Assembly: GCA_002788855.1 (NCBI GenBank)
Contig: PFSB01000006.1
Span: 5,467 to 69,466, forward strand
Direction: 5' to 3'
Source: Candidatus Roizmanbacteria bacterium CG_4_9_14_0_2_um_filter_38_17
Lineage (GTDB): Bacteria; Patescibacteriota; Microgenomatia; GCA-00278855
Length of the DNA: 64,000 nt
Shown: positions 1,140 through 58,328 of the stretch, in pieces
Layout: every line of letters begins with the position of its first letter
Numbering within the stretch: position 1 is the stretch's first letter
Made by a program: the position numbers and the translations under genes
The notes under the pieces: generated by a model
Database searches by the model: none
Seen by the model: only the letters and a program-made list of their open reading frames with translations
Told to the model about the DNA's origin: nothing

Positions 1140-2135
1140 ATGAAATTACTTGTAACTGGCGGTGCAGGTTTTATAGGGTCAAACTTTATTCACTATTGGC
1201 TAAAAACTCATCCCGATGATCAGATAATTAATCTCGATAAGCTTACTTATGCTGGAAATTTGGCTAATCTAAAATCAGTTGAAAACAATCCTAATTACCA
1301 ATTTATTAAAGGAGATATTACAGATGCCCAAATTGTTGCAAAAGCAATGGGTGAGATAGATACTGTGGTCCATTTTGCTGCAGAGAGCCATGTAGATCGC
1401 TCAATTACTGGGCCAGCGGTATTTGTGCAGACTAATGTAGTGGGAACTCAGGTATTACTTGATGCTGCTGTAAAAGCGAAGATAAAACATTTCCATCATA
1501 TCTCGACAGATGAAGTATTTGGCTCATTAGAGCTAGGTGATAAATCAGAGTGGACGGAAAATTCACCTTACGCGCCTCGTAGTCCCTACTCCGCTTCTAA
1601 GGCAGCATCAGATCATCTAGTAAGAGCTTATCACGTGACTTATAATCTGCCCGTGACAATAACAAATTGTTCAAATAATTTTGGACCTTTCCACTATCCA
1701 GAAAAATTATTACCTCTAGCTATAACTAATATTTTAGAAGGTCGCCAAGTTCCAGTATATGGAGATGGACTATATGTAAGGGACTGGTTGTATGTCGCCG
1801 ACCACTGCCGGGCAATTGACGCAGTTCTTAATAGAGGAGAAGTTGGGGAAACGTATCTGGTTGGTGCGTACCACGACGAGATTAATAATCTAGATTTAAT
1901 CAAACTCGTTTTGAAGTTAATGGGGAAGTCTGAAGAAAAAATTGAATTTGTTAAGAACCGACCTGGCCACGATAGAAGATACGCATTTGACTGGAGTAAA
2001 ATTAAGAATGAACTAGATTGGAAGCCTAAATATGAGTTTGAAGAGGCGCTAAAGCTAACTATAGATTGGTATAAAAATAACGAAAATTGGTGGAAGCCTC
2101 TATTAACAACACCCGGTGTTAACACCGGGTGTTAA
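1140..2135 (+). CDS. rmlB: dTDP-glucose 4,6-dehydratase
   Basis: N-terminal TGGAGFIGSN Rossmann motif and YSASKAASD catalytic YxxxK; 331 aa, typical RmlB length. Confidence 0.93.
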   Translation: MKLLVTGGAGFIGSNFIHYWLKTHPDDQIINLDKLTYAGNLANLKSVENNPNYQFIKGDITDAQIVAKAMGEIDTVVHFAAESHVDRSITGPAVFVQTNVVGTQVLLDAAVKAKIKHFHHISTDEVFGSLELGDKSEWTENSPYAPRSPYSASKAASDHLVRAYHVTYNLPVTITNCSNNFGPFHYPEKLLPLAITNILEGRQVPVYGDGLYVRDWLYVADHCRAIDAVLNRGEVGETYLVGAYHDEINNLDLIKLVLKLMGKSEEKIEFVKNRPGHDRRYAFDWSKIKNELDWKPKYEFEEALKLTIDWYKNNENWWKPLLTTPGVNTGC

Positions 2136-2142
2136 TGTAAAA

Positions 2143-3012
2143 ATGAAGACTAAAATTCTCGGAACAGGACTATCTGGCTTGGTTGGAAGTAGAGTTGTTG
2201 AGTTGTTGCAAGATAAATATGACTTTGAAGATCTTAGTTTAGATACGGAAGTAGATATTACGGATATAGATCAGGTAGATGAAAGAATTGGAGCATCAGA
2301 CGCAAAGGTTGTGTTGCATATGGCTGCAATAACTAATGTTGATGCTTGTGAGAAAGAAAGAAATGACGGGGAAAATAGCTTAAGCTGGAGAGTAAACGTT
2401 ACTGGAACAGAAAATATAGTTAAAGCGGTCAAGGCAACTGGTAAGCGCATAATTCATATATCCACGGACTTTGTTTTTTCTGGCCTTGAGGATAGATATA
2501 CGGAAGAGTCTAAACCTAATCCTATTAACTGGTATGGTGAAACAAAGCTTAGGGCAGAAATGGTCGTTCAAGAAAAATTAACTGACTATGCCATATTGCG
2601 TCTATCTTTTCCTTACAGGGCTAAATTTGAGCGATCAGACGTGGTACGTTTCTTCCTAAATACACTAAAAGAAGGTAAATCGGTAGATGCTGTAAGTAAC
2701 TGGATGATCACACCAGGTTTTATAGATGATATGGCGAATGTGATTGAAGCATTTATTACTAATAATGAAGTGGGTATATTCCATAGCGTAGGATCAGACT
2801 CAATGACACCTTACGAAATGGCCACAGCCATTGCAGAATTGTTTGGATTTGACAAAACCCTGGTTCGCGCAGTAAAACTAGAGGATCTATTTCTCGGAAA
2901 GGCTCCCCGCCCGTTAAAGTTAGTTACAGATAATGGTAAAATAACTAGATTAGGTTTGCAGATGCAGACACTAGAAGATGGTCTTGGTATTATTAAGGAA
3001 CAATTAAAATGA
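2143..3012 (+). CDS. rmlD: dTDP-4-dehydrorhamnose reductase-like (RmlD family SDR)
   Basis: GTGLSGLVGSRV NAD-binding motif, STDFVFSG and YGETKL motifs of the RmlD family. The ORF extends to a GTG at 2116 inside the palindrome; ATG at 2143 is preferred. Confidence 0.72.
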   Translation: MKTKILGTGLSGLVGSRVVELLQDKYDFEDLSLDTEVDITDIDQVDERIGASDAKVVLHMAAITNVDACEKERNDGENSLSWRVNVTGTENIVKAVKATGKRIIHISTDFVFSGLEDRYTEESKPNPINWYGETKLRAEMVVQEKLTDYAILRLSFPYRAKFERSDVVRFFLNTLKEGKSVDAVSNWMITPGFIDDMANVIEAFITNNEVGIFHSVGSDSMTPYEMATAIAELFGFDKTLVRAVKLEDLFLGKAPRPLKLVTDNGKITRLGLQMQTLEDGLGIIKEQLK

Positions 3013-17996: not shown

Positions 17997-18902
17997 ATGA
18001 ATAAAATATCAGTAGTTATTTCAGCTTACAATGAAGAAAAATTGCTTGAGGATTGTTTAAAATCTGTTACTTGGGCAGACCAGGTTATTGTTGTAGACAA
18101 TAACTCGACGGATGATACAGCCAAAATAGCCAAGAAGTATGCGGATGAAGTTTATTCTCGTCCTAATAACTTAATGCTCAATGTAAATAAGAATTATGGA
18201 TTTAGTAAAGCTACTGGTGATTGGATATTGAGCTTGGACGCTGATGAAAGAGCTACAGATGAGCTAAAAAAAGAGATTCTAAAAGAGTTACAAGTTACGA
18301 GTTACGAGTTACGAGGTGATGTTAGTGGTTACTGGATTCCCCGCAAGAACATTATTTTTGGTAAGTGGATACAACACACGGGTTGGTATCCAGACTACCA
18401 GCTAAGATTATTTCGTAGAGACAGAGGTAAGTTTGCCCAAAAGCATGTTCATGAGATGGTAGAGGTGAAAGGTAAAACAGAGCAGCTTAAAGGTCATATT
18501 CAGCACTATAACTACGAGACGGTAGACCAATTTTTTCAAAAGCTTTTGGTAGTGTATTCTCACAGCGAGGCAGATAATTTACTAAAGGATGGATATGTAT
18601 TTAACTGGAAGGACGCTATTATCATGCCGCTTCGTGAGTTTTTTAATCGTTATTTTGCGCATAAAGGATATCGTGATGGCTTACATGGGTTGATTTTATC
18701 TCTACTTATGAGTGTATATCATCTAGTGGTTTTTTTGAGATTATGGGAGCGCAAGAAGTATGTAGAGCAAGACGTTAACCTAGGTGAGGTTGCTTCGGAG
18801 GTTGGCGTGTATAGGCAAACATGGAAATATTGGGTGAAGCATGCAAAAGTTGATTTAGCTAATAACGGCGTTGCTAAGCTGGTAGCTAAATATTTTGGGT
18901 AA
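17997..18902 (+). CDS. GT2 family glycosyltransferase (soluble, WaaE/KdtX-like)
   Basis: ISVVISAYNEE...VIVVDNNSTDDT...LSLDADER motifs. Paralogous to the 20509 and 53133 genes. Contains an AGTTACR heptamer x4 repeat. Confidence 0.78.
   Translation: MNKISVVISAYNEEKLLEDCLKSVTWADQVIVVDNNSTDDTAKIAKKYADEVYSRPNNLMLNVNKNYGFSKATGDWILSLDADERATDELKKEILKELQVTSYELRGDVSGYWIPRKNIIFGKWIQHTGWYPDYQLRLFRRDRGKFAQKHVHEMVEVKGKTEQLKGHIQHYNYETVDQFFQKLLVVYSHSEADNLLKDGYVFNWKDAIIMPLREFFNRYFAHKGYRDGLHGLILSLLMSVYHLVVFLRLWERKKYVEQDVNLGEVASEVGVYRQTWKYWVKHAKVDLANNGVAKLVAKYFG
18287..18314 (+). repeat. heptanucleotide tandem repeat (GTTACAA)(GTTACGA)3 inside GT2 gene
   Basis: Read directly: ...gagttacaagttacgagttacgagttacgaggtg... 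Confidence 0.9.
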
Positions 18903-23489: not shown

Positions 23490-24504
23490 TCCATATCTAG
23501 ATAGTCTAGCTGGGGGTGAGAGATATATGCTCACCATAGCTTCTTGTTTGTCAAAAAAGCATAGAGTTGATGTTTTCTGGCCAAACATGGATATTATTGA
23601 AAGGGCTAAAAAAAGATTCAATCTGGATCTAGACGGTGTTTCTGTTAACGCCTCGATGCAGATAGGTAAGATTAGTCGTATTAAGCATACTTTTAAATAC
23701 GATGTAATTATTTACCTTTCAGATGGTAGCGTCCCGATTAGCTTAGCTAAGCACAATATACTTCATTTTCAGGTTCCTTTCACAAGCGTAAACGGGAGGA
23801 GCTTATCTAACCAGCTTAAGCTTAAGAGATTTAATCATTTTGTCTGTAATTCAGAATTTACAAAAAAATATATAGATCAAGAATTTGCAGTAAATAGCAG
23901 TGTTATATATCCTCCAGTCAATACAACAGAGTTTAAGGCGGGTAAAAAACAGAATACTATCTTAACTGTGGGAAGATTTCATCCGCTCAAAAAGCAAGAT
24001 GTGCTTATAGATACCTTTATTTCCATACAAGAAAAGTTAGGTGATTGGCAATTTGTAATAGCTGGGGGATTACTTGAGCAAGACAAGAGTTATTACCAGG
24101 CGCTTGTGGCAAAGTGTGTGGGTAATAATATTAAGCTATTGCCTAATATCAGCCATGAGGATTTAACTCGGCTATATGAAGAGACTAAGATCTACTGGCA
24201 TGGAACGGGTTATGGTGAAAAAAACCCAGAGAATATGGAGCACTTTGGAATAACAACAGTTGAGGCAATGGCGTCTGGTTGTATTCCGGTAGCTTTCAAA
24301 GGCGGTGGACAGAAAGAAATTATTAATGACAAGATAGGTGGTTATCTCTGGGATACTACAGATGAGTTAGTAAAATATACACAAGAGCTAGCTGGTTCAA
24401 CTGAATTATGGGAAAAACTTTCAAAGCAATCAAAGCAAGATGCAGTAAAATATTCTGAGGCAGAATTTTGTAAAAATTGGCAGGAGCTAATAGAAAGGCT
24501 ATGA
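23470..24504 (+). CDS. GT4 family glycosyltransferase (GT-B, retaining)
   Basis: C-terminal GT4 signature VGRFHPLKKQD...ETKIYWHGTGYGE...FGITTVEAMASGCIPVA...GG..EII. Confidence 0.8.
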   Translation: MKIGISSPYLDSLAGGERYMLTIASCLSKKHRVDVFWPNMDIIERAKKRFNLDLDGVSVNASMQIGKISRIKHTFKYDVIIYLSDGSVPISLAKHNILHFQVPFTSVNGRSLSNQLKLKRFNHFVCNSEFTKKYIDQEFAVNSSVIYPPVNTTEFKAGKKQNTILTVGRFHPLKKQDVLIDTFISIQEKLGDWQFVIAGGLLEQDKSYYQALVAKCVGNNIKLLPNISHEDLTRLYEETKIYWHGTGYGEKNPENMEHFGITTVEAMASGCIPVAFKGGGQKEIINDKIGGYLWDTTDELVKYTQELAGSTELWEKLSKQSKQDAVKYSEAEFCKNWQELIERL

Positions 24505-26720
24505 AAAGATACTTATTCCCATTGCTATTAGGGTTAATAGTAGTAGTTTTTTTTGCAAAAACTATTTTTCAAGGATTATTGCCTATTCCAGCAGATACTA
24601 TAGTCGGCTTGTATCATCCATTTCGAGATGCTGTTTTTCAGGAATATCCTAACGGGATTCCTTACAAGAATTTTTTAATAACTGATCCAGTTCGTCAGCA
24701 GTATCCTTGGCGAGAATTAGCTGTGTCGATTATGAAACAAGGTGAGTTACCGCTTTGGAATCCATATCAATTTGCGGGTACTCCACTTCTTGGTAATCTA
24801 CAGTCAGCAGCCCTATATCCCTTGAATATATTGTACTGGTTAATGCCATTTCAAATGACGTGGACAGTGCTGGTTATACTACAGCCACTTCTTGCTTTGT
24901 TATTTATGTACCTATATCTAAAAGAAATGAAACTATTTAAGCTACCTGCGACATTTGGTGCTGTAATATTTGCTTTTAGTGGGTTTTTCGTTGCTTGGCT
25001 AGAGTGGAACACTATTTTACACGTAATTTTATGGTTGCCATTATTATTGCTGGCGCTTGAAAAACTAAGAGTTAAATTGAGTCTTCTTTGGAGTACTATT
25101 TTTATTTTTGCTCTTTCTTCAAGTTTTCTTGCAGGGCATTTACAGGTCTTCTTCTATGTATCTTTGGTTCTTATGGCTTATTTAGTTACTATTTTGTATA
25201 GAAGTAAATCTAAGGGTAAGTTGGTGTTGCTACTTTCTGCTCTTTGCTCACTGTTTGCTGTAGTAACGTCTCTACAGTGGATTCAATTTGTAAAATTTTA
25301 CCTGCAGTCAGCGCGTGAAATTGATCAAGTATTATGGCAAAAGGAAGGCTGGTTTATACCAGCTAAGCATCTAGTTCAGTTTTTTGCTCCAGATTTTTTT
25401 GGCAATCCAGCAACCTTGAATTACTGGGGAGTTTGGAATTATGGTGAATTTATTGGGTATGTAGGAATAGCCGGCTTTGTATTTGCCCTTCTTGCAATTA
25501 TATACAGGAGAGATAGGAAGACATTCTTCTATATTGGATTATTAATCGGATCTATATTATTTGCTACAAATAATGTTATTGCTCAGTTACCTTTTAGGAT
25601 GGGTTTGCCACTAATTGGAACTAGTCAGCCGACCAGATTATTGGCCATAGTAGATTTTTCATTAGCGGTGCTAGCTGCACTTGGACTAGATTATTTTTTA
25701 CGTAGACAGCTAAATATAAAAAAGATAAGCACAGTATTAGTATTGTTTTTGAGCTTATTTATTGCATTATGGATATATACTGATACAGGTAGTGTAGAGC
25801 TTGCAGTAGCAAAACGTAATTTAATTTTACCAACAGGACTATTTATTATTACTGTTATCTTATTACTTAGTGCAATAGCTAGTAGAAATAAAAAGATTTT
25901 TTTGTTTACTGTTTACTGTTTACTGTTTACTGTAGTCTTTGACCTATTTCGGTTTGGCTGGAAATTCACTCCTTTTGTAGCTAGTGACTATCTCTTTCCT
26001 TCTACCAAAACCATTGAGTTTTTGCAGGAGCAAGAGGGGGTGTTTAGAATTATGGCGGCTGATAGGCGAATCTTGCCATCGAACTTTTCAACTTTCTATA
26101 GATTACAGGATGTTGGAGGATACGACCCACTATATCTTAAGAATTATGGAGAATTGGTGAGTGCCTGGGAGAAGAATAAACCAGACGCTTCCTTATTAGA
26201 GTTTAATCGCATATTATCACCTCAAAACTATGAGAGTAAGTTAGCGGATTTATTGAATGTGAAGTACATTCTTAGTTTAGATGAGTTAAGTTCATCAAAG
26301 CTAGTAGAAGTCTTTTCTGAAGGGCAAACCAAGGTGTATGAAAATATAGAAGTTTATCCACGGGTCTTTTTGGTATCCTCAGTTTTAAAAGTCAATAGTA
26401 AACAAGAGGCTATTAATAAAATATTTGAAGAGGGTCTGGATCTAGGTACTCAAGCAGTTGTATATGAAGATCTTAAGCTGGCTAATACGCCCTTAGTCAG
26501 ATCTGAGAACGTAAAGCTACTTAGCTATAGCCCTAATTCAGTTGTGGCGGAGACTGTGACTGAAGAGGAGCACTTATTGGTATTGAGCGATGTATATTAC
26601 CCTGAATGGAGTGTTTTTGTCGATGGAGTTTCAAAGGATATCATTGAAGTAGATTATGCTTTGCGCGGTGTGGTTGTACCTTCTGGAAAGCATAAAGTTG
26701 AATTTAAGATTAGAATATAA
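24501..26720 (+). CDS. YfhO-like GT-C membrane glycosyltransferase (paralog 2 of 4)
   Basis: QYPWRE...LWNPYQFAGTPLLGNLQSAALYPLN N-terminal block; C-terminal LSDVYYPEWSVFVDG...GKHKVEFK. Contains the (GTTTACT)4 repeat. ATG 24501 (ATGA overlap) is preferred over the ORF call at 24477. Confidence 0.65.
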   Translation: MKRYLFPLLLGLIVVVFFAKTIFQGLLPIPADTIVGLYHPFRDAVFQEYPNGIPYKNFLITDPVRQQYPWRELAVSIMKQGELPLWNPYQFAGTPLLGNLQSAALYPLNILYWLMPFQMTWTVLVILQPLLALLFMYLYLKEMKLFKLPATFGAVIFAFSGFFVAWLEWNTILHVILWLPLLLLALEKLRVKLSLLWSTIFIFALSSSFLAGHLQVFFYVSLVLMAYLVTILYRSKSKGKLVLLLSALCSLFAVVTSLQWIQFVKFYLQSAREIDQVLWQKEGWFIPAKHLVQFFAPDFFGNPATLNYWGVWNYGEFIGYVGIAGFVFALLAIIYRRDRKTFFYIGLLIGSILFATNNVIAQLPFRMGLPLIGTSQPTRLLAIVDFSLAVLAALGLDYFLRRQLNIKKISTVLVLFLSLFIALWIYTDTGSVELAVAKRNLILPTGLFIITVILLLSAIASRNKKIFLFTVYCLLFTVVFDLFRFGWKFTPFVASDYLFPSTKTIEFLQEQEGVFRIMAADRRILPSNFSTFYRLQDVGGYDPLYLKNYGELVSAWEKNKPDASLLEFNRILSPQNYESKLADLLNVKYILSLDELSSSKLVEVFSEGQTKVYENIEVYPRVFLVSSVLKVNSKQEAINKIFEEGLDLGTQAVVYEDLKLANTPLVRSENVKLLSYSPNSVVAETVTEEEHLLVLSDVYYPEWSVFVDGVSKDIIEVDYALRGVVVPSGKHKVEFKIRI
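25904..25931 (+). repeat. perfect heptanucleotide tandem repeat (GTTTACT)4 preceded by a T7 tract, inside YfhO-like gene
   Basis: Read directly: gatttttttGTTTACTGTTTACTGTTTACTGTTTACTgtag. Unit length is not a multiple of 3. Confidence 0.95.
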
Positions 26721-46902: not shown

Positions 46903-48481
46903 ACTGGGTCTTAGTTTACGGCTATATCAGCTGGGTTCAAATCCAGTGTCTTTGGCGTGGGATGAGGCTGCCTGGGGATATAATGCTTATTCCTTAGGGA
47001 TAGATGGTAGGGATGAGTTTGGTGCACTACTATCAATGAGTTACCTTGAGTCATTCGGAGACTTTAAGCCACCCTTATATGCGTATCTTACAGTGTTACC
47101 AGTTAAACTACTGGGCTTAAACGAACTAGCGACCCGAATTCCTTCAGCTGTTATCGGTAGCTTAACTATTATAGCTGTGTATTTTCTAACAAAAGAGATC
47201 TTTAGATCAAGTCAAAAAAGATCACACTATGCTTTAGCTACAAGTTTTCTTTTGGCCATAAGCCCTTGGCATATTAATTTATCCAGAGCAGCTTTTGAAG
47301 CCAACGTTGCTCAGCTGTTGATAATAATGGGAGTTTTCTTTTTTTTCTTCTTTATTAGAGGTAAACCGAAGTTACTAGTACTGTCTGCCTTGTTTTTTGT
47401 ATTTTCTTTGTATACCTTTAATACAGCGCGTGTTTTTGTACCCTTATTGGTTCTAGCATTAACTATATTTAATTACCGGATATTATTAAAATACCGAAGA
47501 TGGGTGTTAATAGCTACGGTTATTGGTATCTTAATTAGTATTCCATTGTTAAGATTTATGTTAACTCCTCAGTCGAAACTGCGTTATCACGAGGTGAATA
47601 TTTTTTCTGATGCGGGAGTTGTAGAGCTGGCAAATAGGGAAATAGCTAATGACGGAAATACGATTGTTTCGCGAGTGATACATAATCGCAGGTTTGGCTA
47701 TGCTCGATCATATATGAAGCACTACATGGATCACTTCAATCCAGAGTTTTTATTCATTAGGGGAGATGGAAACCCTAAGTTCTCAATACAGGATGTTGGT
47801 CAGCTGTATTTATGGGAGTTACCGTTCTTAGTTGGAGGAATACTACTGCTTATTAGAAAGAAAGAGGGAAATTGGTGGATTGTACCAGCATGGCTACTTT
47901 TGGGGATTCTGCCAGCAGCTACCGCACGTGAGACACCACATGCGTTGAGAATAGAGACGACTCTTCCTATGTGGCAGATTTTTACAGCGTATGGTTTGGT
48001 GACTTTAGTTTCTTGCGTGAAGCGTCAAAAGTTAAAGGTTGTTGCTATGAGTGTTATAGCTCTAGCAATTGCGGCAAATGGAACATACTACTTACATGGG
48101 TACTATAGACACTATCCAGTTGAGTATGCGCATGAGTGGCAGTATGGATACCAAGAGATGTTCGCGTATACAGAGCTTGTTAAAGGTAATTACGATAAGA
48201 TTATAGTTACAGAACTTCTAGGAAGACCGTATATCTACAATCTGTTCTATTCTAAGATAGATCCTAAATCATTTAGAGAACAAGCAATTGTTGAACGAGA
48301 GGCACTTGGATTCGTGACTGTTAAAGAATTTGATAAATATATTTTTACAAAAGAGCCAAGTAGATATATTGAAGGCAATCTACTTTATGTAAATATACCT
48401 ACTAATGTTCCTAAATCTGCTGTAGTTAAGAAGATTGTTGAGTTGCCTAATGGCAGTGGGGCATTTGTGATATATGAATAA
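46874..48481 (+). CDS. PMT_2/ArnT-like GT-C glycosyltransferase (paralog 3 of 4)
   Basis: LRLYQLGSNPVSLAWDEAAWGYNAYSLGIDGRDEFG...FGDFKPPLYAYLTVLPVKLLG. Confidence 0.6.
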   Translation: MRKLFVLIFILGLSLRLYQLGSNPVSLAWDEAAWGYNAYSLGIDGRDEFGALLSMSYLESFGDFKPPLYAYLTVLPVKLLGLNELATRIPSAVIGSLTIIAVYFLTKEIFRSSQKRSHYALATSFLLAISPWHINLSRAAFEANVAQLLIIMGVFFFFFFIRGKPKLLVLSALFFVFSLYTFNTARVFVPLLVLALTIFNYRILLKYRRWVLIATVIGILISIPLLRFMLTPQSKLRYHEVNIFSDAGVVELANREIANDGNTIVSRVIHNRRFGYARSYMKHYMDHFNPEFLFIRGDGNPKFSIQDVGQLYLWELPFLVGGILLLIRKKEGNWWIVPAWLLLGILPAATARETPHALRIETTLPMWQIFTAYGLVTLVSCVKRQKLKVVAMSVIALAIAANGTYYLHGYYRHYPVEYAHEWQYGYQEMFAYTELVKGNYDKIIVTELLGRPYIYNLFYSKIDPKSFREQAIVEREALGFVTVKEFDKYIFTKEPSRYIEGNLLYVNIPTNVPKSAVVKKIVELPNGSGAFVIYE

Positions 48482-50138
48482 AAGAATAGTTATATTGTTG
48501 GTTATTACAATAATCTCGGTATCGTTGCGGTTTTGGCAGCTAGGCCAGGTGCCACCGTCACCAGACTGGGATGAAGCAGCCTTGGGATATAACGCCTATT
48601 CAATATTGGAGACGGGTAGAGATGAGTATGGGACCTTATTGCCTGTGATTTTGCGTTCCTTTGATGATTATAAGCCAGCTTTATATGGGTACTTAGTAGT
48701 ATCATCGGTGGCGCTGTTTGGTCTTAATGTTTGGGCGGTGCGACTACCCTCTGCATTAATAGGATCTTTGACGGTAGTTATGTCGTATTTCTTGGTTATT
48801 GAGCTTTTCAGACTAGGAGGTAGACAGAAGCAGAGGAAGTTAGCTTATTTAACGGCATTTCTGTTGGCGATTAGCCCCTGGCATTTGCAGTTTTCGCGTA
48901 TAGCGTTTGAGTCTAACGTAGGATTAGCTTTTAACATATTTGCACTTTGGTCCTTTTTAGTAGGGTTGCGTAAACAGATGTTTTTATTTGTTTCAGCTAT
49001 ATTTTTTGCCTTAAGCTTGTATGTTTATCAGAGTGAGAAGGTTTTTGTACCGATGCTACTATTAGTTCTTTTAATAGTATTTTTTGAAAAACTATGGAAA
49101 ATAAAAGGGAAAGTGGTACTAGTTATTGGAGCTCTTCTAATATCTTCTGCTCCTTTTATATATGCAACATTTTCTAACCCAGATGCGCTACTTAGAGCAA
49201 AGGGAGTAAGCGTTTTTGCTGATCAAACACCCTTTTTGGAGACCACAGTAGAAAGACTTATCAGAGATAGGGAGTCTGGGGATTATCTAGGTGTGGTGTT
49301 GGATAATCGTCGAGTAAAATACTCGTTCGAGTTTGCTAAGGGATACTTGTCTCATTTTGATCTAAACTGGTTATTTATTGCTGGTGACCAACCACGTCAT
49401 CAGCCATCTGGTTTTGGGCATTTGTATCTTATGGAGCTACCGTTTATGCTGGCTGGTATTTATGGACTTGTATTTGGGAATTTTTCTCGTAGGACAAAAA
49501 AGCTAATATTTGCGTGGTTCCTCATAACTCCCTTACCCGCTGCTTTTACTACCGGAGTTCCACATCCAATCCGTACACTTAACTTCCTTCCCTTATTCCA
49601 GATATTTACTGCACTAGGATTATTAGTTTTTATAAAAACAATTTTCAATTTTCAATTTTCAATTTTCAATTTCAAGGTTAAATATTTAGTGTTCCTATTG
49701 AGTTTTTTATTTATAATATTCAATTTTCTGTACTATTTTAATCAGTATTTTGTTCAACAGAACTATTTCCTTTCCCAGGTTTGGCAGTATGGATATAAAG
49801 AGGTAGTTGTAGCTGTAGAGGAGGTACAGGATAAATATTCAACGATAGTCGTAACAAATAAGCCTCATCTTGATCAGTCATATATATTTTTCTTGTTTTA
49901 TACGAAGTATAATCCTGCTATGTATCAGGCGGGAGGAGGGACTGTTACAGGAGGATTTGCTGAAACACATACTGGTTTTGGTAAATATGATTTTAGACCA
50001 ATTAACTGGAATGAAGAAGTAAAAGACGGCAGTACATTATATATTGGAAGACCAGAAGATTTTCCAGGGGATGTCAAAGTACTAAAAGAGATTAATTTTC
50101 TCGATGGGACACCTGCTATAAAGATTGTGGAGGGTTAA
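48474..50138 (+). CDS. PMT_2/ArnT-like GT-C glycosyltransferase (paralog 4 of 4)
   Basis: LRFWQLGQVPPSPDWDEAALGYNAYSILETGRDEYG...FDDYKPALYGY. Contains the (CAATTTT)4 repeat. Confidence 0.6.
   Translation: MNKRIVILLVITIISVSLRFWQLGQVPPSPDWDEAALGYNAYSILETGRDEYGTLLPVILRSFDDYKPALYGYLVVSSVALFGLNVWAVRLPSALIGSLTVVMSYFLVIELFRLGGRQKQRKLAYLTAFLLAISPWHLQFSRIAFESNVGLAFNIFALWSFLVGLRKQMFLFVSAIFFALSLYVYQSEKVFVPMLLLVLLIVFFEKLWKIKGKVVLVIGALLISSAPFIYATFSNPDALLRAKGVSVFADQTPFLETTVERLIRDRESGDYLGVVLDNRRVKYSFEFAKGYLSHFDLNWLFIAGDQPRHQPSGFGHLYLMELPFMLAGIYGLVFGNFSRRTKKLIFAWFLITPLPAAFTTGVPHPIRTLNFLPLFQIFTALGLLVFIKTIFNFQFSIFNFKVKYLVFLLSFLFIIFNFLYYFNQYFVQQNYFLSQVWQYGYKEVVVAVEEVQDKYSTIVVTNKPHLDQSYIFFLFYTKYNPAMYQAGGGTVTGGFAETHTGFGKYDFRPINWNEEVKDGSTLYIGRPEDFPGDVKVLKEINFLDGTPAIKIVEG
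49639..49675 (+). repeat. heptanucleotide tandem repeat (CAATTTT)4 plus one degenerate copy (CAATTTC) inside PMT_2-like gene
   Basis: Read directly: aaaaCAATTTTCAATTTTCAATTTTCAATTTTCAATTTCaagg. Confidence 0.95.
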
Positions 50139-51459: not shown

Positions 51460-53148
51460 ATGAAGAAAAATAGATCTATAATCTTACTACTAATATTTGC
51501 AATCCTTCCTCTGTTTAGCTTATTTCATTCTGGAATGTTTGTCGGACACGATACTCAACTACATGTTGCTAGAATTGCACACTTTTATAAAAGCCTAAAT
51601 GAAGGAATATTAATTCCTCGCTGGGGAGGGGATCTGAACTTAGGTTATGGACACCCAGCTTTTATATTTTATTATTCTCTGACATCCTATGTTGCTTCGG
51701 CGTTTCACTTTTTGGGCTTTTCACTCGTGTTTTCAACTAAGCTTGTGTACGGCCTAGGATTTATGGGTAGTGGCTTGGCAATGTATCTATGGGTGAGACA
51801 GTTATTTAGAGGTAAGGAGGGCCTGCCCGCCGATGAGGCGGGTTTGATTAGTGGGCTATTGTATATGTATGCACCGTATAGATTTGTTGATCTTTATATA
51901 AGAGGGGCAATTGGGGAAAACTTCTTTTTTATCTGGCCTCCTCTTGTACTATACTTTTTAACAAAACTACAAAGAGGTTATAAATTTAAGCATGTACTGG
52001 GAGCTTCTCTTTCACTCACTGCCTTGATTCTATCTCACAACGCCTCCAGTCTTATGTTTTTACCCTTTATTGGCCTATATGGACTGCTACTGGTTCAGAA
52101 AGCTAAGAATAAGATAATGTTTATCGCACACCAGCTATTAGTAGCTGGATTAGGTTTTGGAGTAAGTGCTTTCTTCTGGATACCTGCTTTGTTTGAGAGC
52201 AAGTACACACTGCAGAACGTTATTATGGGAGATGGGATATTTAAGCATTTTGAGCCTTTTTCAAGACTTCTTTATTCTCCTTGGAATCTAGGAGGGACTG
52301 GACAGTTTAGTATCCAGGTCGGAATTATCCAGTGGCTGGTTATGTTGTTAGTAACGTTTATGCTGTTAAAAAGATTCCGTGGTCTATCTTCTACCAAAGG
52401 TCCGGTAAATGATAAATTACTAGTTATTCTTTCATATATAACTTTCTGGGTTGCAATATTAATGATATTGCCTGCATCTAAGCCGGTCTATGAAATAATA
52501 ACCATCTTTAAGAAATTTCAGTTTCCTTGGAGATGGCTATCTTTAGCTATTTTTCCAGCAGCACTACTCTCTGGATATCTCGTACGTATTTTACCCAAAA
52601 AATACTCTTTATTTATTATCTATTGTTTATTGTTTACTGTTCCACTACTGACTGTTAATATGTGGAAGGTGCGTGACTATGACTATAGCCCAGATAGCTT
52701 CTATCTAGATGAGTATAAGGGAACCACTGATTCATCGGGAGAGAATTCACCAGTGTGGTCCATTAGATTTATGGAGCAAACGCCAAAAGCTAACATAGAG
52801 GTTGTTGAGGGTGAAGGTGAAGTACAGGATAAGAAACATAGCTCAATACTGCATGAGTATGAAGTAACGGCTGTAGACGACAAAGTTAGGGTACTTGATA
52901 ACACGCTGTATTTTCCAGGTTGGAGTGTGTATGTGGATGGGAGTAAGCTATTTCTGCATGATGTGTGGTGGCAGGATCCAAATTACAGAGGGCTTATTAC
53001 ATTTTTTGTTCAGAAGGGTCAGCATGAGATAATTGTTAAGTTTGAAAGAACAAAAATACGCTTATTAGCAGAGATTATTTCGCTGGTTAGTATCGGTCTG
53101 TTAGTTAGCTTACCAATGTTTTATAAAGTTCTATGGTCAAAAAAGTAA
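51460..53148 (+). CDS. membrane protein, H-D-x3-H family GT-C candidate (paralog group B, 4 of 5)
   Basis: MFVGHDTQLHVARIA...IPRWGGDLNLGYGHPAFIFYYSL; C-terminal YFPGWSVYVDGSK...GQHEIIVKFERTKIR. Confidence 0.5.
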   Translation: MKKNRSIILLLIFAILPLFSLFHSGMFVGHDTQLHVARIAHFYKSLNEGILIPRWGGDLNLGYGHPAFIFYYSLTSYVASAFHFLGFSLVFSTKLVYGLGFMGSGLAMYLWVRQLFRGKEGLPADEAGLISGLLYMYAPYRFVDLYIRGAIGENFFFIWPPLVLYFLTKLQRGYKFKHVLGASLSLTALILSHNASSLMFLPFIGLYGLLLVQKAKNKIMFIAHQLLVAGLGFGVSAFFWIPALFESKYTLQNVIMGDGIFKHFEPFSRLLYSPWNLGGTGQFSIQVGIIQWLVMLLVTFMLLKRFRGLSSTKGPVNDKLLVILSYITFWVAILMILPASKPVYEIITIFKKFQFPWRWLSLAIFPAALLSGYLVRILPKKYSLFIIYCLLFTVPLLTVNMWKVRDYDYSPDSFYLDEYKGTTDSSGENSPVWSIRFMEQTPKANIEVVEGEGEVQDKKHSSILHEYEVTAVDDKVRVLDNTLYFPGWSVYVDGSKLFLHDVWWQDPNYRGLITFFVQKGQHEIIVKFERTKIRLLAEIISLVSIGLLVSLPMFYKVLWSKK

Positions 53149-55487: not shown

Positions 55488-57081
55488 GTTTGATCTGTTT
55501 TTACTACTTATGTTCGGATTATTTTCGTGGTGGCTGTTTGATAAATCATTTGGTTACGACGGGATTTCGAGTACATTTAGAATAGCACGTCATCAAGTTG
55601 GCGACTTTGCCCTTCATTTGTCTCTTATTCGTTCTTTTTCATGGGGGAACAATTTTCCACCGGAGCTTCCCTTTTTTGCCAGTAAGCCCTTACCATATCA
55701 CTATTTATTTGATTTATCAGTTGGGTTGCTTGAAAGAGCTGGAGTTAGAATAGATATGGCTTTTAACGGACTAAGTATTTTATTTTTTTCTGGTCTTTTA
55801 TTTCTCATATATAAACTACCTCAGGTAATTTTTACTAAAAGTAAATTGTTGGGTTTACTATCTTTAGCTCTATTTTTAGGTAATAGTAGTTTAACTTTTA
55901 TTACATATATTGTTCAGAACGGATTGTCTTTAGGTAAATTATGGTTACAGCCCGATTATTTACATATGGGCCCACTTGATGGATCTTTGATATCAACTTT
56001 TTTTACATTAAATGTGTATCTAAATCAGCGCCACCTTGTTGCTGGACTTTTCATGGTTCTATTTGTGATTTATTTATTATTGGTATCACACTCCAGGAAT
56101 GTCAACCTTGCACATTCCTGGAATGGGTTTAGGTTTATGCTTCTTTTAGGTGTGTTATTGGGAGTTTCGTCTTTAATTCATACACTGGTGATGGTTTCTG
56201 CGTCAATTTTTATTTTCGGATTTTTGGTGTTGGAGAAAAGGTTTCGTGAAATGCTAATTCTTCTTACGCCAGTGGTATTGATTCTGGGAATAAGAATTAT
56301 TCCGGTATTGGGTCAGAATCTAGGTCATGCTTGGATTAATCCTGGTTTTCATGCCGAAAAACCATTAACTTTATTTAATTTTGCTAAATATTGGTTTGTT
56401 AACTTGGGTGTCGGGACTTTAACAATACCTCTAGGATTTTATTTAGCAAACAGAAAGCAAAAAATACTGTTTATGGGCATAGGATTACTGTTTATTATTG
56501 GAAACATATTTCAGCTGGGATTTCGTATTGACCATAATCACAGCATATTTAATTTCGTATTTATATTTACTAATATGCTTAGTGCTTACTTCGTGTATAA
56601 AGTATGGCAAGGTGGAATTTTAAGAAAATTTGTTTCAATTGTTATTGTATTTTTGTTAACTATATCTGGATTGATTAACTTAATGGCTGTTAAAAATGAC
56701 TTTCATTTAGAAATTGCTGATGCACCAAAAGATATGCTTATAGCTTGGGTAAGAGACAATACTGCTCCTGATTCTGTGTTTTTGGCGCCAAGTGAACAAT
56801 TTGATCCAGTGACGCTAGCTGGACGTAAGAATTATTTAGGTAACAGCTATTATTTAGAAGTTATGGGTTATGATTATAGGGATCGAAAGAAAACTGTGCA
56901 AGATTATTTTGAAGCAGATAATATCACCATATTGGAACAGATAAAACAAAGCGGCATAGACTATGTATTGGTTCCAGTAGTACCTCTAGTTGATTTCAAA
57001 TATGAAGTATCGCCCCTGTTTTGGGAGGAAAATGTGAAACTTGTATATGAGGATAATAAACAGAGGCTGTATAAGCTATGA
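55468..57081 (+). CDS. polytopic membrane protein, putative GT-C (paralog of 33249 gene)
   Basis: See 33249. Contains the CATTCC(T)GGAATG palindromic motif at 56083-56125. Confidence 0.4.
   Translation: MQLKKHRFDLFLLLMFGLFSWWLFDKSFGYDGISSTFRIARHQVGDFALHLSLIRSFSWGNNFPPELPFFASKPLPYHYLFDLSVGLLERAGVRIDMAFNGLSILFFSGLLFLIYKLPQVIFTKSKLLGLLSLALFLGNSSLTFITYIVQNGLSLGKLWLQPDYLHMGPLDGSLISTFFTLNVYLNQRHLVAGLFMVLFVIYLLLVSHSRNVNLAHSWNGFRFMLLLGVLLGVSSLIHTLVMVSASIFIFGFLVLEKRFREMLILLTPVVLILGIRIIPVLGQNLGHAWINPGFHAEKPLTLFNFAKYWFVNLGVGTLTIPLGFYLANRKQKILFMGIGLLFIIGNIFQLGFRIDHNHSIFNFVFIFTNMLSAYFVYKVWQGGILRKFVSIVIVFLLTISGLINLMAVKNDFHLEIADAPKDMLIAWVRDNTAPDSVFLAPSEQFDPVTLAGRKNYLGNSYYLEVMGYDYRDRKKTVQDYFEADNITILEQIKQSGIDYVLVPVVPLVDFKYEVSPLFWEENVKLVYEDNKQRLYKL
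56083..56125. repeat. copy A of composite palindrome-containing short repeat (GTATCACAYTCCAGGAATGT / CTTGCACATTCCWGGAATG)
   Basis: 19/20 nt match to 58236-58255; contains inverted repeat CCAGGAATGT-N9-ACATTCCTGG. Confidence 0.7.
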
Positions 57082-58328
57082 AGTTTAAATTAGCGCCATT
57101 ATTAATATTTCTTACAGTTTTTATTGTCTATTTTGGGTTGGGGACAAAATGGACGTTTGAGTCATTATGGGCACTGGATTATTTCAATAATCTAGCGGAA
57201 TCACTATTACAAGGGAAATTGAATATTTCAGAACCAGGAAGTACTTATGACTTAGTGCTATTCCAGGGAGGTTGGTATCTGCCCTGGGGAGCTTTAGTGG
57301 GGTTGTTATTTATCCCCATGCAGTTAATAAAAGGGGGTTACGTTCCGTCTATATATTTAAATGTTCTTATATCGAGTTTGGATGTTGTATTGTTCTATCT
57401 GATTCTAAAGCGCTTTAGAAGAAGCTATTTTCCAGAGTTGGATAAAGTAGCTATCTGGCTAGCAACTGCTTTATTTGCATTTGGTACTACGCATTTTTAT
57501 GTTGGTACTTTGGGAAGCTCCTGGCATACAGATCAGATGATATCTAGTTTTTTTGGTACCGCTGGGATATATATGATTCTGCATGACAAGCGCGGGTTCA
57601 AAGATTATCTATTAGCAAGTATCTGTTTTAGCATCTCGCTTATAGGCAAAGGGACCATTATTATGTTGGGTACTTTGCCAGCGATACTTTATTTCTGGGA
57701 TTTGTATCAAGGTCAGATGAAATTTAAACTAGGTCGTTTTATATTGCTGATTATGCCTGTGGCATTATTTTCGGTTCTGTTTTTGTCTCATAATTATTTG
57801 CGATTTGGCGATCCTCTTGAATACGGTTATTCATATATTAAAGAAGCTCCATACTTAGAGCAGAGGAGGGTGGAACATGATGCTTTTTCGCTGAAGCATG
57901 TTTCTTATAATTTGCACTATATGTTACTTGAAGCACCGAGGTTTAGCTGGAATGAAGGGATTAAAATGGATATTAACTTAAAAGGTAACTCAATATTGTT
58001 ATTAACCCCCTCACTATTTTTTATGTTTCTAGCTCATCCGTTTCGTAGGTTTAAGAACAAGGAATTTAGAGCTGTGCTATCTGCCCTGTGGATAACGATG
58101 TTGTTTACTATTTTACCCAGTCTAATGGTCTATAGCACTGGCTGGATGCAGTTTGGCTATCGATACAGCTTGGATATAACTGCCATATTAGTTTTACTAT
58201 CTATTGTAGGCTTGCAAAGCACATTCCAGGAATGTGTATCACATTCCAGGAATGTGTCAATACTATATAGCTTAGGGATAATGGCAGCAGTATATATGCA
58301 CTACCTTGGAATCACAGCACTCCAATGA
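57078..58328 (+). CDS. polytopic membrane protein, unknown (possible GT-C)
   Basis: ~11 TM; C-terminal region carries tandem 20-nt palindromic repeats. Confidence 0.4.
   Translation: MKFKLAPLLIFLTVFIVYFGLGTKWTFESLWALDYFNNLAESLLQGKLNISEPGSTYDLVLFQGGWYLPWGALVGLLFIPMQLIKGGYVPSIYLNVLISSLDVVLFYLILKRFRRSYFPELDKVAIWLATALFAFGTTHFYVGTLGSSWHTDQMISSFFGTAGIYMILHDKRGFKDYLLASICFSISLIGKGTIIMLGTLPAILYFWDLYQGQMKFKLGRFILLIMPVALFSVLFLSHNYLRFGDPLEYGYSYIKEAPYLEQRRVEHDAFSLKHVSYNLHYMLLEAPRFSWNEGIKMDINLKGNSILLLTPSLFFMFLAHPFRRFKNKEFRAVLSALWITMLFTILPSLMVYSTGWMQFGYRYSLDITAILVLLSIVGLQSTFQECVSHSRNVSILYSLGIMAAVYMHYLGITALQ
58211..58260. repeat. copy B of composite repeat: tandem 20-mers CACATTCCAGGAATGTGT(AT/CA), each a 17-nt palindrome
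   Basis: Read directly: cttgcaaagCACATTCCAGGAATGTGTATCACATTCCAGGAATGTGTCAA. Confidence 0.85.

Follow-up and report, generated by a model that had tools for sequence, protein, structure and literature searches.

The closest described counterparts of the element considered here, a perfect heptanucleotide tract of (CAATTTT)x4 with a partial fifth copy inside a predicted glycosyltransferase gene of a 64,000-nt stretch of Candidatus Roizmanbacteria DNA (contig PFSB01000006.1; hereafter the window), are the simple sequence repeats (SSRs) of other bacteria. In Escherichia coli K1, the CUS-3 phage O-acetyltransferase gene neuO, a proven heptanucleotide switch, contains an AAGACTC variable-number tandem repeat of 3-53 copies and is OFF in 65.6% of 64 genomes, a single culture can hold a mixture of 20, 21 and 22 copies, with length mixtures of 93/2/5%, and a longer repeat region is reported to raise catalytic activity (PMC13001214). 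Haemophilus influenzae has SSRs whose unit is not a multiple of three in its lipopolysaccharide glycosyltransferase genes (tetranucleotide units), together with intragenic heptanucleotide tracts including (AATTTTG)14, and its heptanucleotide tracts, those of the hmw1A/hmw2A promoters among them, run to 6-38 units and are polymorphic between strains. Heptameric SSRs as a class are over-represented in many bacterial genomes, for which slippage related to the polymerase footprint is the hypothesis given in PMC4692102 (citing Mrazek 2007), and the cyanobacterial STRR heptamers and the GGGNATC repeats of Xanthomonas and Nostoc likewise show a strong period-7 excess with many loci per genome. Our literature search found nothing that links the Candidate Phyla Radiation (CPR) or Patescibacteria with phase variation or SSRs.

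Set beside these systems, the Roizmanbacteria tract resembles neuO in being a coding heptanucleotide repeat in the gene of a putative surface-polysaccharide-modifying enzyme, in being ON at one copy class modulo 3, and in encoding a heptad peptide read in three phases, but the neuO repeat is long, variable and at the 5' end of its gene, whereas the tract here has 4.9 copies at 70% of the open reading frame (ORF), is invariant and is without OFF alleles. The classical H. influenzae tracts are long, with 8-38 units, differ in length between strains, are frequently OFF and occur only in surface or restriction genes, and none of these properties was seen here. The tract belongs with the already known over-represented heptameric SSRs, in this case coding, in frame and in a CPR bacterium; where the described repeats are mostly intergenic and G-rich, the tracts reported below are AT-rich, almost all coding and in frame, of about 4.5 copies, and present in essential genes too. 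We consider it reasonably probable that the tract is an in-frame heptanucleotide SSR arising from a lineage-wide period-7 bias in replication slippage; probably it does not serve as an on/off switch dedicated to the glycosyltransferase. The features on which the argument depends are the following.

48474..50138, + strand: intact gene of 554 amino acids for a predicted GT-C glycosyltransferase (Pfam PMT_2; AlphaFold2 model; DWDE at residues 31-34)
49639..49672, + strand: perfect heptanucleotide tract, (CAATTTT)x4 plus CAATTT, 4.86 copies, residues 389-401
49667..49673, + strand: terminal unit CAATTTC, the degenerate fifth copy of the preliminary description; its AAT TTC codons correspond, in the alignment, to the 3' edge of the orthologue tracts
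49679..49681, + strand: TAA, the stop reached when one unit is gained or two are lost (in-silico frameshift), protein end ...FQFQG-stop
49687..49689, + strand: TAG, the stop reached when one unit is lost or two are gained (in-silico frameshift), protein end ...SISRLNI-stop
49617..49718, + strand: hypervariable segment, residues 382-415, comprising the end of the penultimate transmembrane (TM) helix, a low-confidence loop and part of the last TM helix

Direct reading of the DNA at 49639-49672 gives ATAAAAA-(CAATTTT)x4-CAATTT-C-AAGG, and Tandem Repeats Finder (TRF) reports a period of 7 with 4.9 copies and 100% matches; the encoded peptide is (T)IFNFQFSIFNF(K), residues 389-401, in which the unit is translated in all three phases. 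An exhaustive scan of the window for perfect tandem repeats (units of 2-12 nt, at least 3 copies and at least 14 nt) returned three only, all of period 7 (18293-18315, 25903-25933 and 49639-49672), and a scan for imperfect repeats returned four period-7 segments and none of periods 4-6 or 8-12. Not one of 300 order-3 Markov simulations of the window contained a repeat of any period from 4 to 12 that reached 28 nt, and 0.003 7-mer x3 repeats are expected per window. The tract is not a chance product; it is real and statistically striking, and the period-7 excess over other periods and over chance that marks the heptameric SSR class is present. The preliminary description was therefore accurate in reporting a perfect (CAATTTT)x4 repeat with a degenerate fifth copy (49639-49673, in frame) in a PMT_2-like GT-C gene, separate from the tracts in a GT2 and a YfhO gene. 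It had further seen in CAATTTC, of which six of the seven bases keep the period and the final C breaks it, a fossil of past repeat-number change, and this is partly right: the AAT TTC is homologous to the 3' edge of older orthologue tracts of the AAATTTC/AAATATC type, and these codons therefore represent an anchor or seed that comes from a preceding tract, the unit not being necessarily a mutated extra copy.

The gene at 48474-50138 encodes a predicted GT-C enzyme (PMT_2 or GT39-like), an assignment that draws on both sequence and structural model. Its product matches Pfam PMT_2 (PF13231) with E=3.8e-10 and 40.7 bits (curated cut-off 26.1), and the AlphaFold2 (AF2) model, with a predicted local distance difference test (pLDDT) score of 85.7, has a multi-TM GT-C fold followed by a C-terminal soluble domain. 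Foldseek matches of the model include AglB, ArnT, PglB, STT3, ALG12/9 and Pmt4 with E down to 2e-8; the TM-score against ArnT is 0.55, and the model also resembles the catalytic subunits of oligosaccharyltransferase. The acidic motif DWDE (residues 31-34) falls in the first extracytoplasmic loop, and D31, D33 and E34 are invariant in alignments of 14 and of 40 sequences; the host gene shares with GT-C fold glycosyltransferases (ArnT, PglB/AglB/STT3, PMT, ALG) the PMT_2 match, the first-loop acidic motif and the C-terminal soluble domain. The gene belongs to a set of about a dozen paralogues within the 64-kb island and is known here by its sequence and model; the exact protein is on deposit as a hypothetical protein of Candidatus Roizmanbacteria/Microgenomates, and its homologues, mostly from Levybacteria, are named GT39 family by NCBI. 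The tract begins 1165 nt into the 1665-nt ORF (70%), and its residues occupy, in the AF2 model, the end of TM helix 369-391 and the loop 392-401, the lowest-pLDDT block thereabouts.

As in a contingency locus, the unit is not divisible by three and a one-unit change shifts the frame. In silico, 1, 4 or 7 copies keep the reading frame, while 2, 5 or 8 copies lead to the TAA at 49679-49681 (protein ending at residue 397, 404 or 411) and 3 or 6 copies to the TAG at 49687-49689 (ending at residue 402 or 409). The stops of both off frames fall 7-17 nt past the tract, and a protein made from an off-frame variant would lack the last TM helix (402-430) as well as the C-terminal domain (441-553) of the AF2 model; the tracts in the GT2 and YfhO genes behave in the same way on unit change. 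The claim that slippage here would cause a frameshift thus holds in silico for a change of one or two units, and on the same in-silico footing alternative copy numbers do decide the fate of the ORF, with 1, 4 and 7 in frame and 2, 3, 5, 6 and 8 truncating it.

The copy-number data available for the source population are assembly consensus from about 20 contigs. Four copies are present in every full-length assembly, and different JGI and NCBI samples supplied five contigs that match the window at 100% identity across 7.6 kb. Look-ups made through tract-free neighbour genes returned the 554-amino acid gene every time, and 17-21 contigs carry the three tract-bearing proteins of the window in intact form, the corresponding figure for ten tract-free neighbours being 14-23. 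The protein collection held no truncated or +/-7-amino acid variants of these proteins, and a protein search with the C-terminal 181 amino acids gave no 100%-identity match to a fragment starting at the tract. Strain variants of the YfhO gene, which are mosaic in their 5' half, also keep four copies. A flank-anchored, variable-gap DNA scan of metagenome contigs gave 0 matches with a pattern that works on the window and on the fetched loci, the contig of the source population being apparently absent there, so that this zero carries no weight. The copy-number variation that a switch would lead one to expect is thus absent at the level of assembly consensus, strain variants included; neither polymorphic copy number between assemblies nor ON and OFF alleles among genomes, the usual marks of a contingency locus, were seen. 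A second strain is represented by L019 (ERZ27293400), which is 100% identical to the window until the start of the YfhO tract gene and 86-91% identical thereafter; the region concerned is window positions ~24470-24997, where the L019 contig ends, and the protein variants P0150, P0152 and P0155 confirm the 5' mosaic of YfhO.

Three further period-7 tracts lie in the window, two perfect and one decayed.

18283..18318, + strand: (AGTTACG)x3.3 with a degenerate copy before it, perfect part 18293-18315, in frame in the GT2 gene 17997-18902
25903..25933, + strand: (TGTTTAC)x4.4, in frame in the YfhO-family gene 24477-26720 (TRF and perfect-repeat scan)
52609..52641, + strand: decayed period-7 tract with 86% lag-7 identity, TTTATTG/TTTACTG units and peptide LFIIYCLLFTV, in the PTPS_related membrane-protein gene 51460-53148

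From end to end the window forms a single glycosylation island, read from the + strand, in which essentially every gene is glycosylation-related, with about 12 PMT_2 GT-C genes, five YfhO, four PTPS_related, more than 10 GT2 and two or three GT4 genes, together with flippases and sugar-nucleotide enzymes. Since it holds only glycosylation genes, three tracts in three glycosyltransferases are what any random placement would give, and their distribution is uninformative.

A wider sample came from the loci around orthologues (48-57% amino acid identity) in 80 other genomes, 1.38 Mb in all (L023-L102). Perfect tracts of period 7 number 47 in these loci, against 4, 10, 2, 0 and 1 for periods 3, 4, 5, 6 and 8, and imperfect repeats of period 7 number 93, against 18, 8, 3, 2, 2 and 0 for periods 4, 5, 6, 8, 9 and 10-12. 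Every one of the 41 clearly intragenic period-7 tracts (38 in the 80 loci and three in the window) is in frame. Copy numbers range from 3 to 5.6 and are mostly 4.1-4.9 (3.x, n=13; 4.x, n=27; 5.x, n=5). The coding sequence of Microgenomates/Patescibacteria, in the loci examined, is accordingly rich in period-7 tracts and has almost none of other periods, and the tracts occupy tolerant sites, namely the N-terminus, inter-helix loops and TM segments. Within GT-C ORFs they are found right after the ATG, at ~21% and at ~71%, the last being the site of the window tract. The ORFs that bear them encode GT-C, GT2, GT4, YfhO and PTPS_related proteins; the 80 loci hold almost only glycosylation genes, and a test of glycosyltransferase enrichment within them was dropped because the non-glycosyltransferase ORFs (epimerases, methyltransferases and flippases) are themselves members of the same glycosylation clusters. 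Window and loci together, being almost purely glycosylation genes, have no power to show such enrichment.

Three apparent OFF alleles (L028, L034 and L068) were rejected: their tracts run across the stop of galE and the start of the next gene, and these are two separate genes in all relatives. The galE-junction tracts (units AATTCAA and CTCAAAA; L028 20543-20573, L068 14929-14959, L034 16708-16728) cover the last galE codons and the stop and end directly at the ATG of a downstream gene for a small membrane protein, so that a length change would alter both the GalE C-terminus and the spacing before the next start codon. Another unit in these loci, AAAACTC (peptide KTQNSKL; L031 12046, L044 5917, L034 16708), is one base off the neuO unit AAGACTC. 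Five GT-C genes (L025, L027, L035, L048 and L086, at about nt 350-380 of the ORF) contain the identical core GAA ATT GGA AAT TGG AAA TTG GAA, encoding LEIGNWKLE; the genes have 51-69% nucleotide identity, and 25 nt of GAAATTG repeats are identical among them. Two genes of other families, one GT2 (L025 18305) and one GT4 (L053 13624), contain the GAAATTG unit as well.

At the site of the window tract itself, orthologues have perfect or decayed tracts (QKISNIKYKISNIQIKY and similar) with units AAATATC, AAATTTC or CAATTTT, and their alleles are either short (27 amino acids) or long (34 amino acids), a difference of exactly three units. Length and sequence variation at the same locus between related organisms, which is typical of heptameric SSRs, is thus found here. 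The closest relative (L227; 87% amino acid and 84% nucleotide identity) has no tract at this site: over the ~100 nt of 49617-49718 its identity to the window falls to 28-57%, with sharp bounds and flanks of ~90%. A simple +21-nt insertion relative to that relative was considered for the origin of the tract and ruled out, as the ~100 nt around the tract are non-homologous to L227. The segment 49617-49718 looks, in this comparison, like a locally replaced or scrambled cassette.

A sample that was unselected for gene type came from a scan of metagenome contigs for (CAATTTT)x4, which gave at least 120 stretches. Among the matches listed, the prokaryote-like contigs carry the (CAATTTT) tract in frame, in 4.0-5.1 copies encoding (N)FQFSIFNFQ, and the carriers there include leucyl/isoleucyl-tRNA synthetase, arginyl-tRNA synthetase, RNase HII, the CCA-adding enzyme, PolX, RibF, MraY (twice), TsaD, MurB, RibD and prepilin peptidase; about 3 of 19 carriers, again among the matches listed, are glycosyltransferases. 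The same contigs contain 49 further heptamer tracts in 707 kb. TsaD homologues named Patescibacteria have tract-derived insertions in at least two of their loops; the tract in TsaD appears to extend from native AAT TTT (N F) codons, and its presence or absence does not follow the tree. The tsaD genes of four Patescibacteria (L172, L223, L224 and L225) have tracts at two loop sites with 31-33 nt identical, the orthologues having 75-80% nucleotide identity. Because these tracts lie in essential single-copy genes, gene switch-off cannot be the reason for them there, and the concentration in surface genes with avoidance of housekeeping genes that distinguishes contingency loci was not observed. 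The preliminary description had argued from three tracts for a genome-level strategy of stochastic glycosyltransferase switching; with a window composed entirely of glycosylation genes, 0 of 41 intragenic tracts OFF, a constant copy number and the same tract in housekeeping genes, that proposal is not upheld. Contigs selected by (CAATTTT)4 (L131, L144, L207, L220 and others) contain many additional heptamer tracts built on other units, their GC contents ranging from 0.3 to 0.65, and some of them look eukaryotic or cyanobacterial; proneness to heptamer repeats therefore seems to characterise whole genomes in a number of unrelated lineages.

Under a period-7 slippage bias, 7-nt slippage would be unusually frequent in these genomes, and a seed of 1.x copies would gain three units (+21 nt, +7 amino acids) at an insertion-tolerant site to arrive at 4.1-4.9 copies. 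Selection would then keep only changes of +/-3 units, in-frame alleles would persist, and in the course of evolution the site would alternate between a short and a long allele. Steps of one or two units in either direction would presumably have to arise as well, removing residues 402-553 in the present gene, and the resulting null variants would be transient by-products that are purged, as opposed to a selected bet-hedging device. The frameshift variants are likely a by-product of slippage and not a demonstrated switch.

Several considerations weigh against this account. Its one-step gain of three units is assumed. A simple neutral model of birth and decay predicts neither that tract DNA should be identical between orthologues of 51-80% nucleotide identity whose flanking codons differ at synonymous sites, nor that the unit vocabulary should be restricted, and both are found: 50 tracts (from L023-L102 and the window) fall into 28 unit necklaces, 44 pairs coincide where background heptamer or seed frequencies predict 2.2-8.5, and the units GAAATTG and AATTTTC recur in unrelated gene families. 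Homogenisation by repeated contraction and expansion, with constraint at the protein level, could lie behind the identity of the tracts; from copy to copy, each base of the unit comes to stand in the first, second and third codon position, and this adds to the protein-level constraint. Four tracts in relatives begin only 2-7 nt behind the start codon of a GT-C or related gene (L035 11649, L049 7117, L061 9927, L075 9505; peptides or sequences MKTENRKQKTENR, MKSQISNLKSQ and MKKFSIFNFQFS), a position that is the classical anatomy of phase-variable genes, and within glycosylation clusters the tracts are in transferases and not in sugar-nucleotide enzymes. The invariance of copy number, moreover, is that of an assembly consensus, in which minority length variants cannot be excluded, and the contigs of three assemblies end exactly at the three tracts, as might happen with length heterogeneity within a sample (the contig ends near the tracts are L012 at 49666, L018 at 25932, L022 at 18293 and L017 at 25969). 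As proof of heterogeneity these ends were judged ambiguous: identical (CAATTTT)>=4 tracts are on other contigs of the same metagenome (Ga0210057_1010873, _1070244), and since tract 31-mers are common to other loci there, contig breaks at k=31 are explained equally well without it.

A rival idea is that of a true contingency locus, in which a hypermutable tract would turn the GT-C gene ON (1, 4 or 7 copies) or OFF as low-rate phase variation of dispensable transferase paralogues; combined with its counterparts in the GT2 and YfhO genes, it would make the surface glycans combinatorially diverse, which might serve in defence against phages or in host attachment by episymbiotic CPR bacteria. We regard this as unlikely, although several observations would suit it: the unit that is not a multiple of three, with a stop 7-17 nt past the tract in either off frame, the location of the three tracts of one island in three transferase families, orthologues and paralogues of other species with tracts at the same sites and just past the ATG, contig ends coinciding with all three tracts, perfect tracts that persist in diverged orthologues and so imply ongoing slippage, and the existence of heptanucleotide switches in surface-glycan genes (neuO and H. 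influenzae loci). What counts against it is the behaviour of the tracts, none of 41 intragenic ones being OFF at 3-5.6 copies, compared with 66% OFF and 3-53 copies for neuO, the copy number being constant in ~20 assemblies and across strain variants, and the 4.9 copies being short in relation to known switches; the same type of tract occupies essential single-copy genes in which switching would be lethal, and the glycosyltransferase association is uninformative in a window of glycosylation genes only. Another idea is that of a sequence-specific element, with tracts written or maintained at the nucleotide level (by a dedicated mechanism of templated or reiterative insertion of a limited set of heptamers) or functional as DNA or RNA, in which case simple slippage with selection for frame would give only part of the account. 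To the 44 coincident pairs among 50 tracts and the sharing of GAAATTG and AATTTTC by unrelated families this idea can add cores of 25-33 nt that are identical in genes of 51-80% nucleotide identity with synonymous differences in flanking codons, and a TsaD tract whose presence does not follow the tree; yet units differ widely overall (28 necklaces), orthology accounts for some of the coincidences, the tracts seem to have native local codons as their starting point, homogenisation with protein-level constraint could explain the conservation, and no associated enzyme or motif was found, so that we give it a small probability only.

That the repeated peptide (the FNFQFSI heptad) is itself a selected extension of a loop or TM helix, the DNA periodicity being incidental, appears very improbable. 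A long 34-amino acid allele is indeed kept in several orthologues after decay of the DNA repeat, and the reported gain in neuO activity with a longer repeat region would be in line with it, but the closest relative (87% amino acid identity) has a completely different and shorter segment, the peptide varies among orthologues, the loop has low model confidence, and selection on the peptide would not keep an exact nucleotide periodicity. An assembly or sequencing artefact can be given almost no credence, since the identical sequence is present in independent JGI, NCBI, ENA and Logan assemblies, and the sometimes observed breaking of contigs at tracts is nothing specific. We put forward a broader proposal tentatively, as possible but doubtful: Patescibacteria/Microgenomates would have an active, heptanucleotide-specific expansion and contraction, working in +/-21-nt steps with a small vocabulary of units in tolerant loops of many proteins, essential ones included, and kept perfect across species, which in glycosylation islands would yield low-rate reversible knock-outs of transferases. 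If true, CPR bacteria would thereby gain their first case of SSR-type phase variation, and were the tract a real switch it would provide the first evidence of contingency-locus phase variation in uncultivated CPR and would suggest surface-glycan bet-hedging in episymbionts.

The evidence points instead to a mutational signature, a period-7 slippage bias that would insert blocks of seven amino acids in proteins throughout these reduced genomes. For annotation, this means that heptamer tracts are not to be taken automatically for phase-variation loci, and the bias is relevant to the origin of many lineage-specific insertions in CPR proteins. The lineage-wide pattern is of greater interest than the single tract, and the identical tract DNA and restricted vocabulary merit a genome-wide study.

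Some minor features of the window may be recorded in addition. The island also holds MptA/B-like and Dpy19-like proteins, and its 5' end has rmlA/B/D-like and UDP-glucose dehydrogenase genes. At 51818-51842, within the PTPS_related gene, there is a GC-rich, hairpin-like sequence, GGGCCTGCCCGCC-GATGA-GGCGGG, in a genome of 36% GC, and the contigs of two JGI assemblies (L004 and L005) stop exactly after it. A perfect 17-nt palindrome, CACATTCCAGGAATGTG, occurs twice with 3 nt between the copies at 58220-58257, near the 3' end of the ORF 57078-58328, and tandem palindromic 13-mers, AACACCCGGTGTT / AACACCGGGTGTT, lie at 2108-2135, where the ORFs 1140-2135 and 2116-3012 meet.

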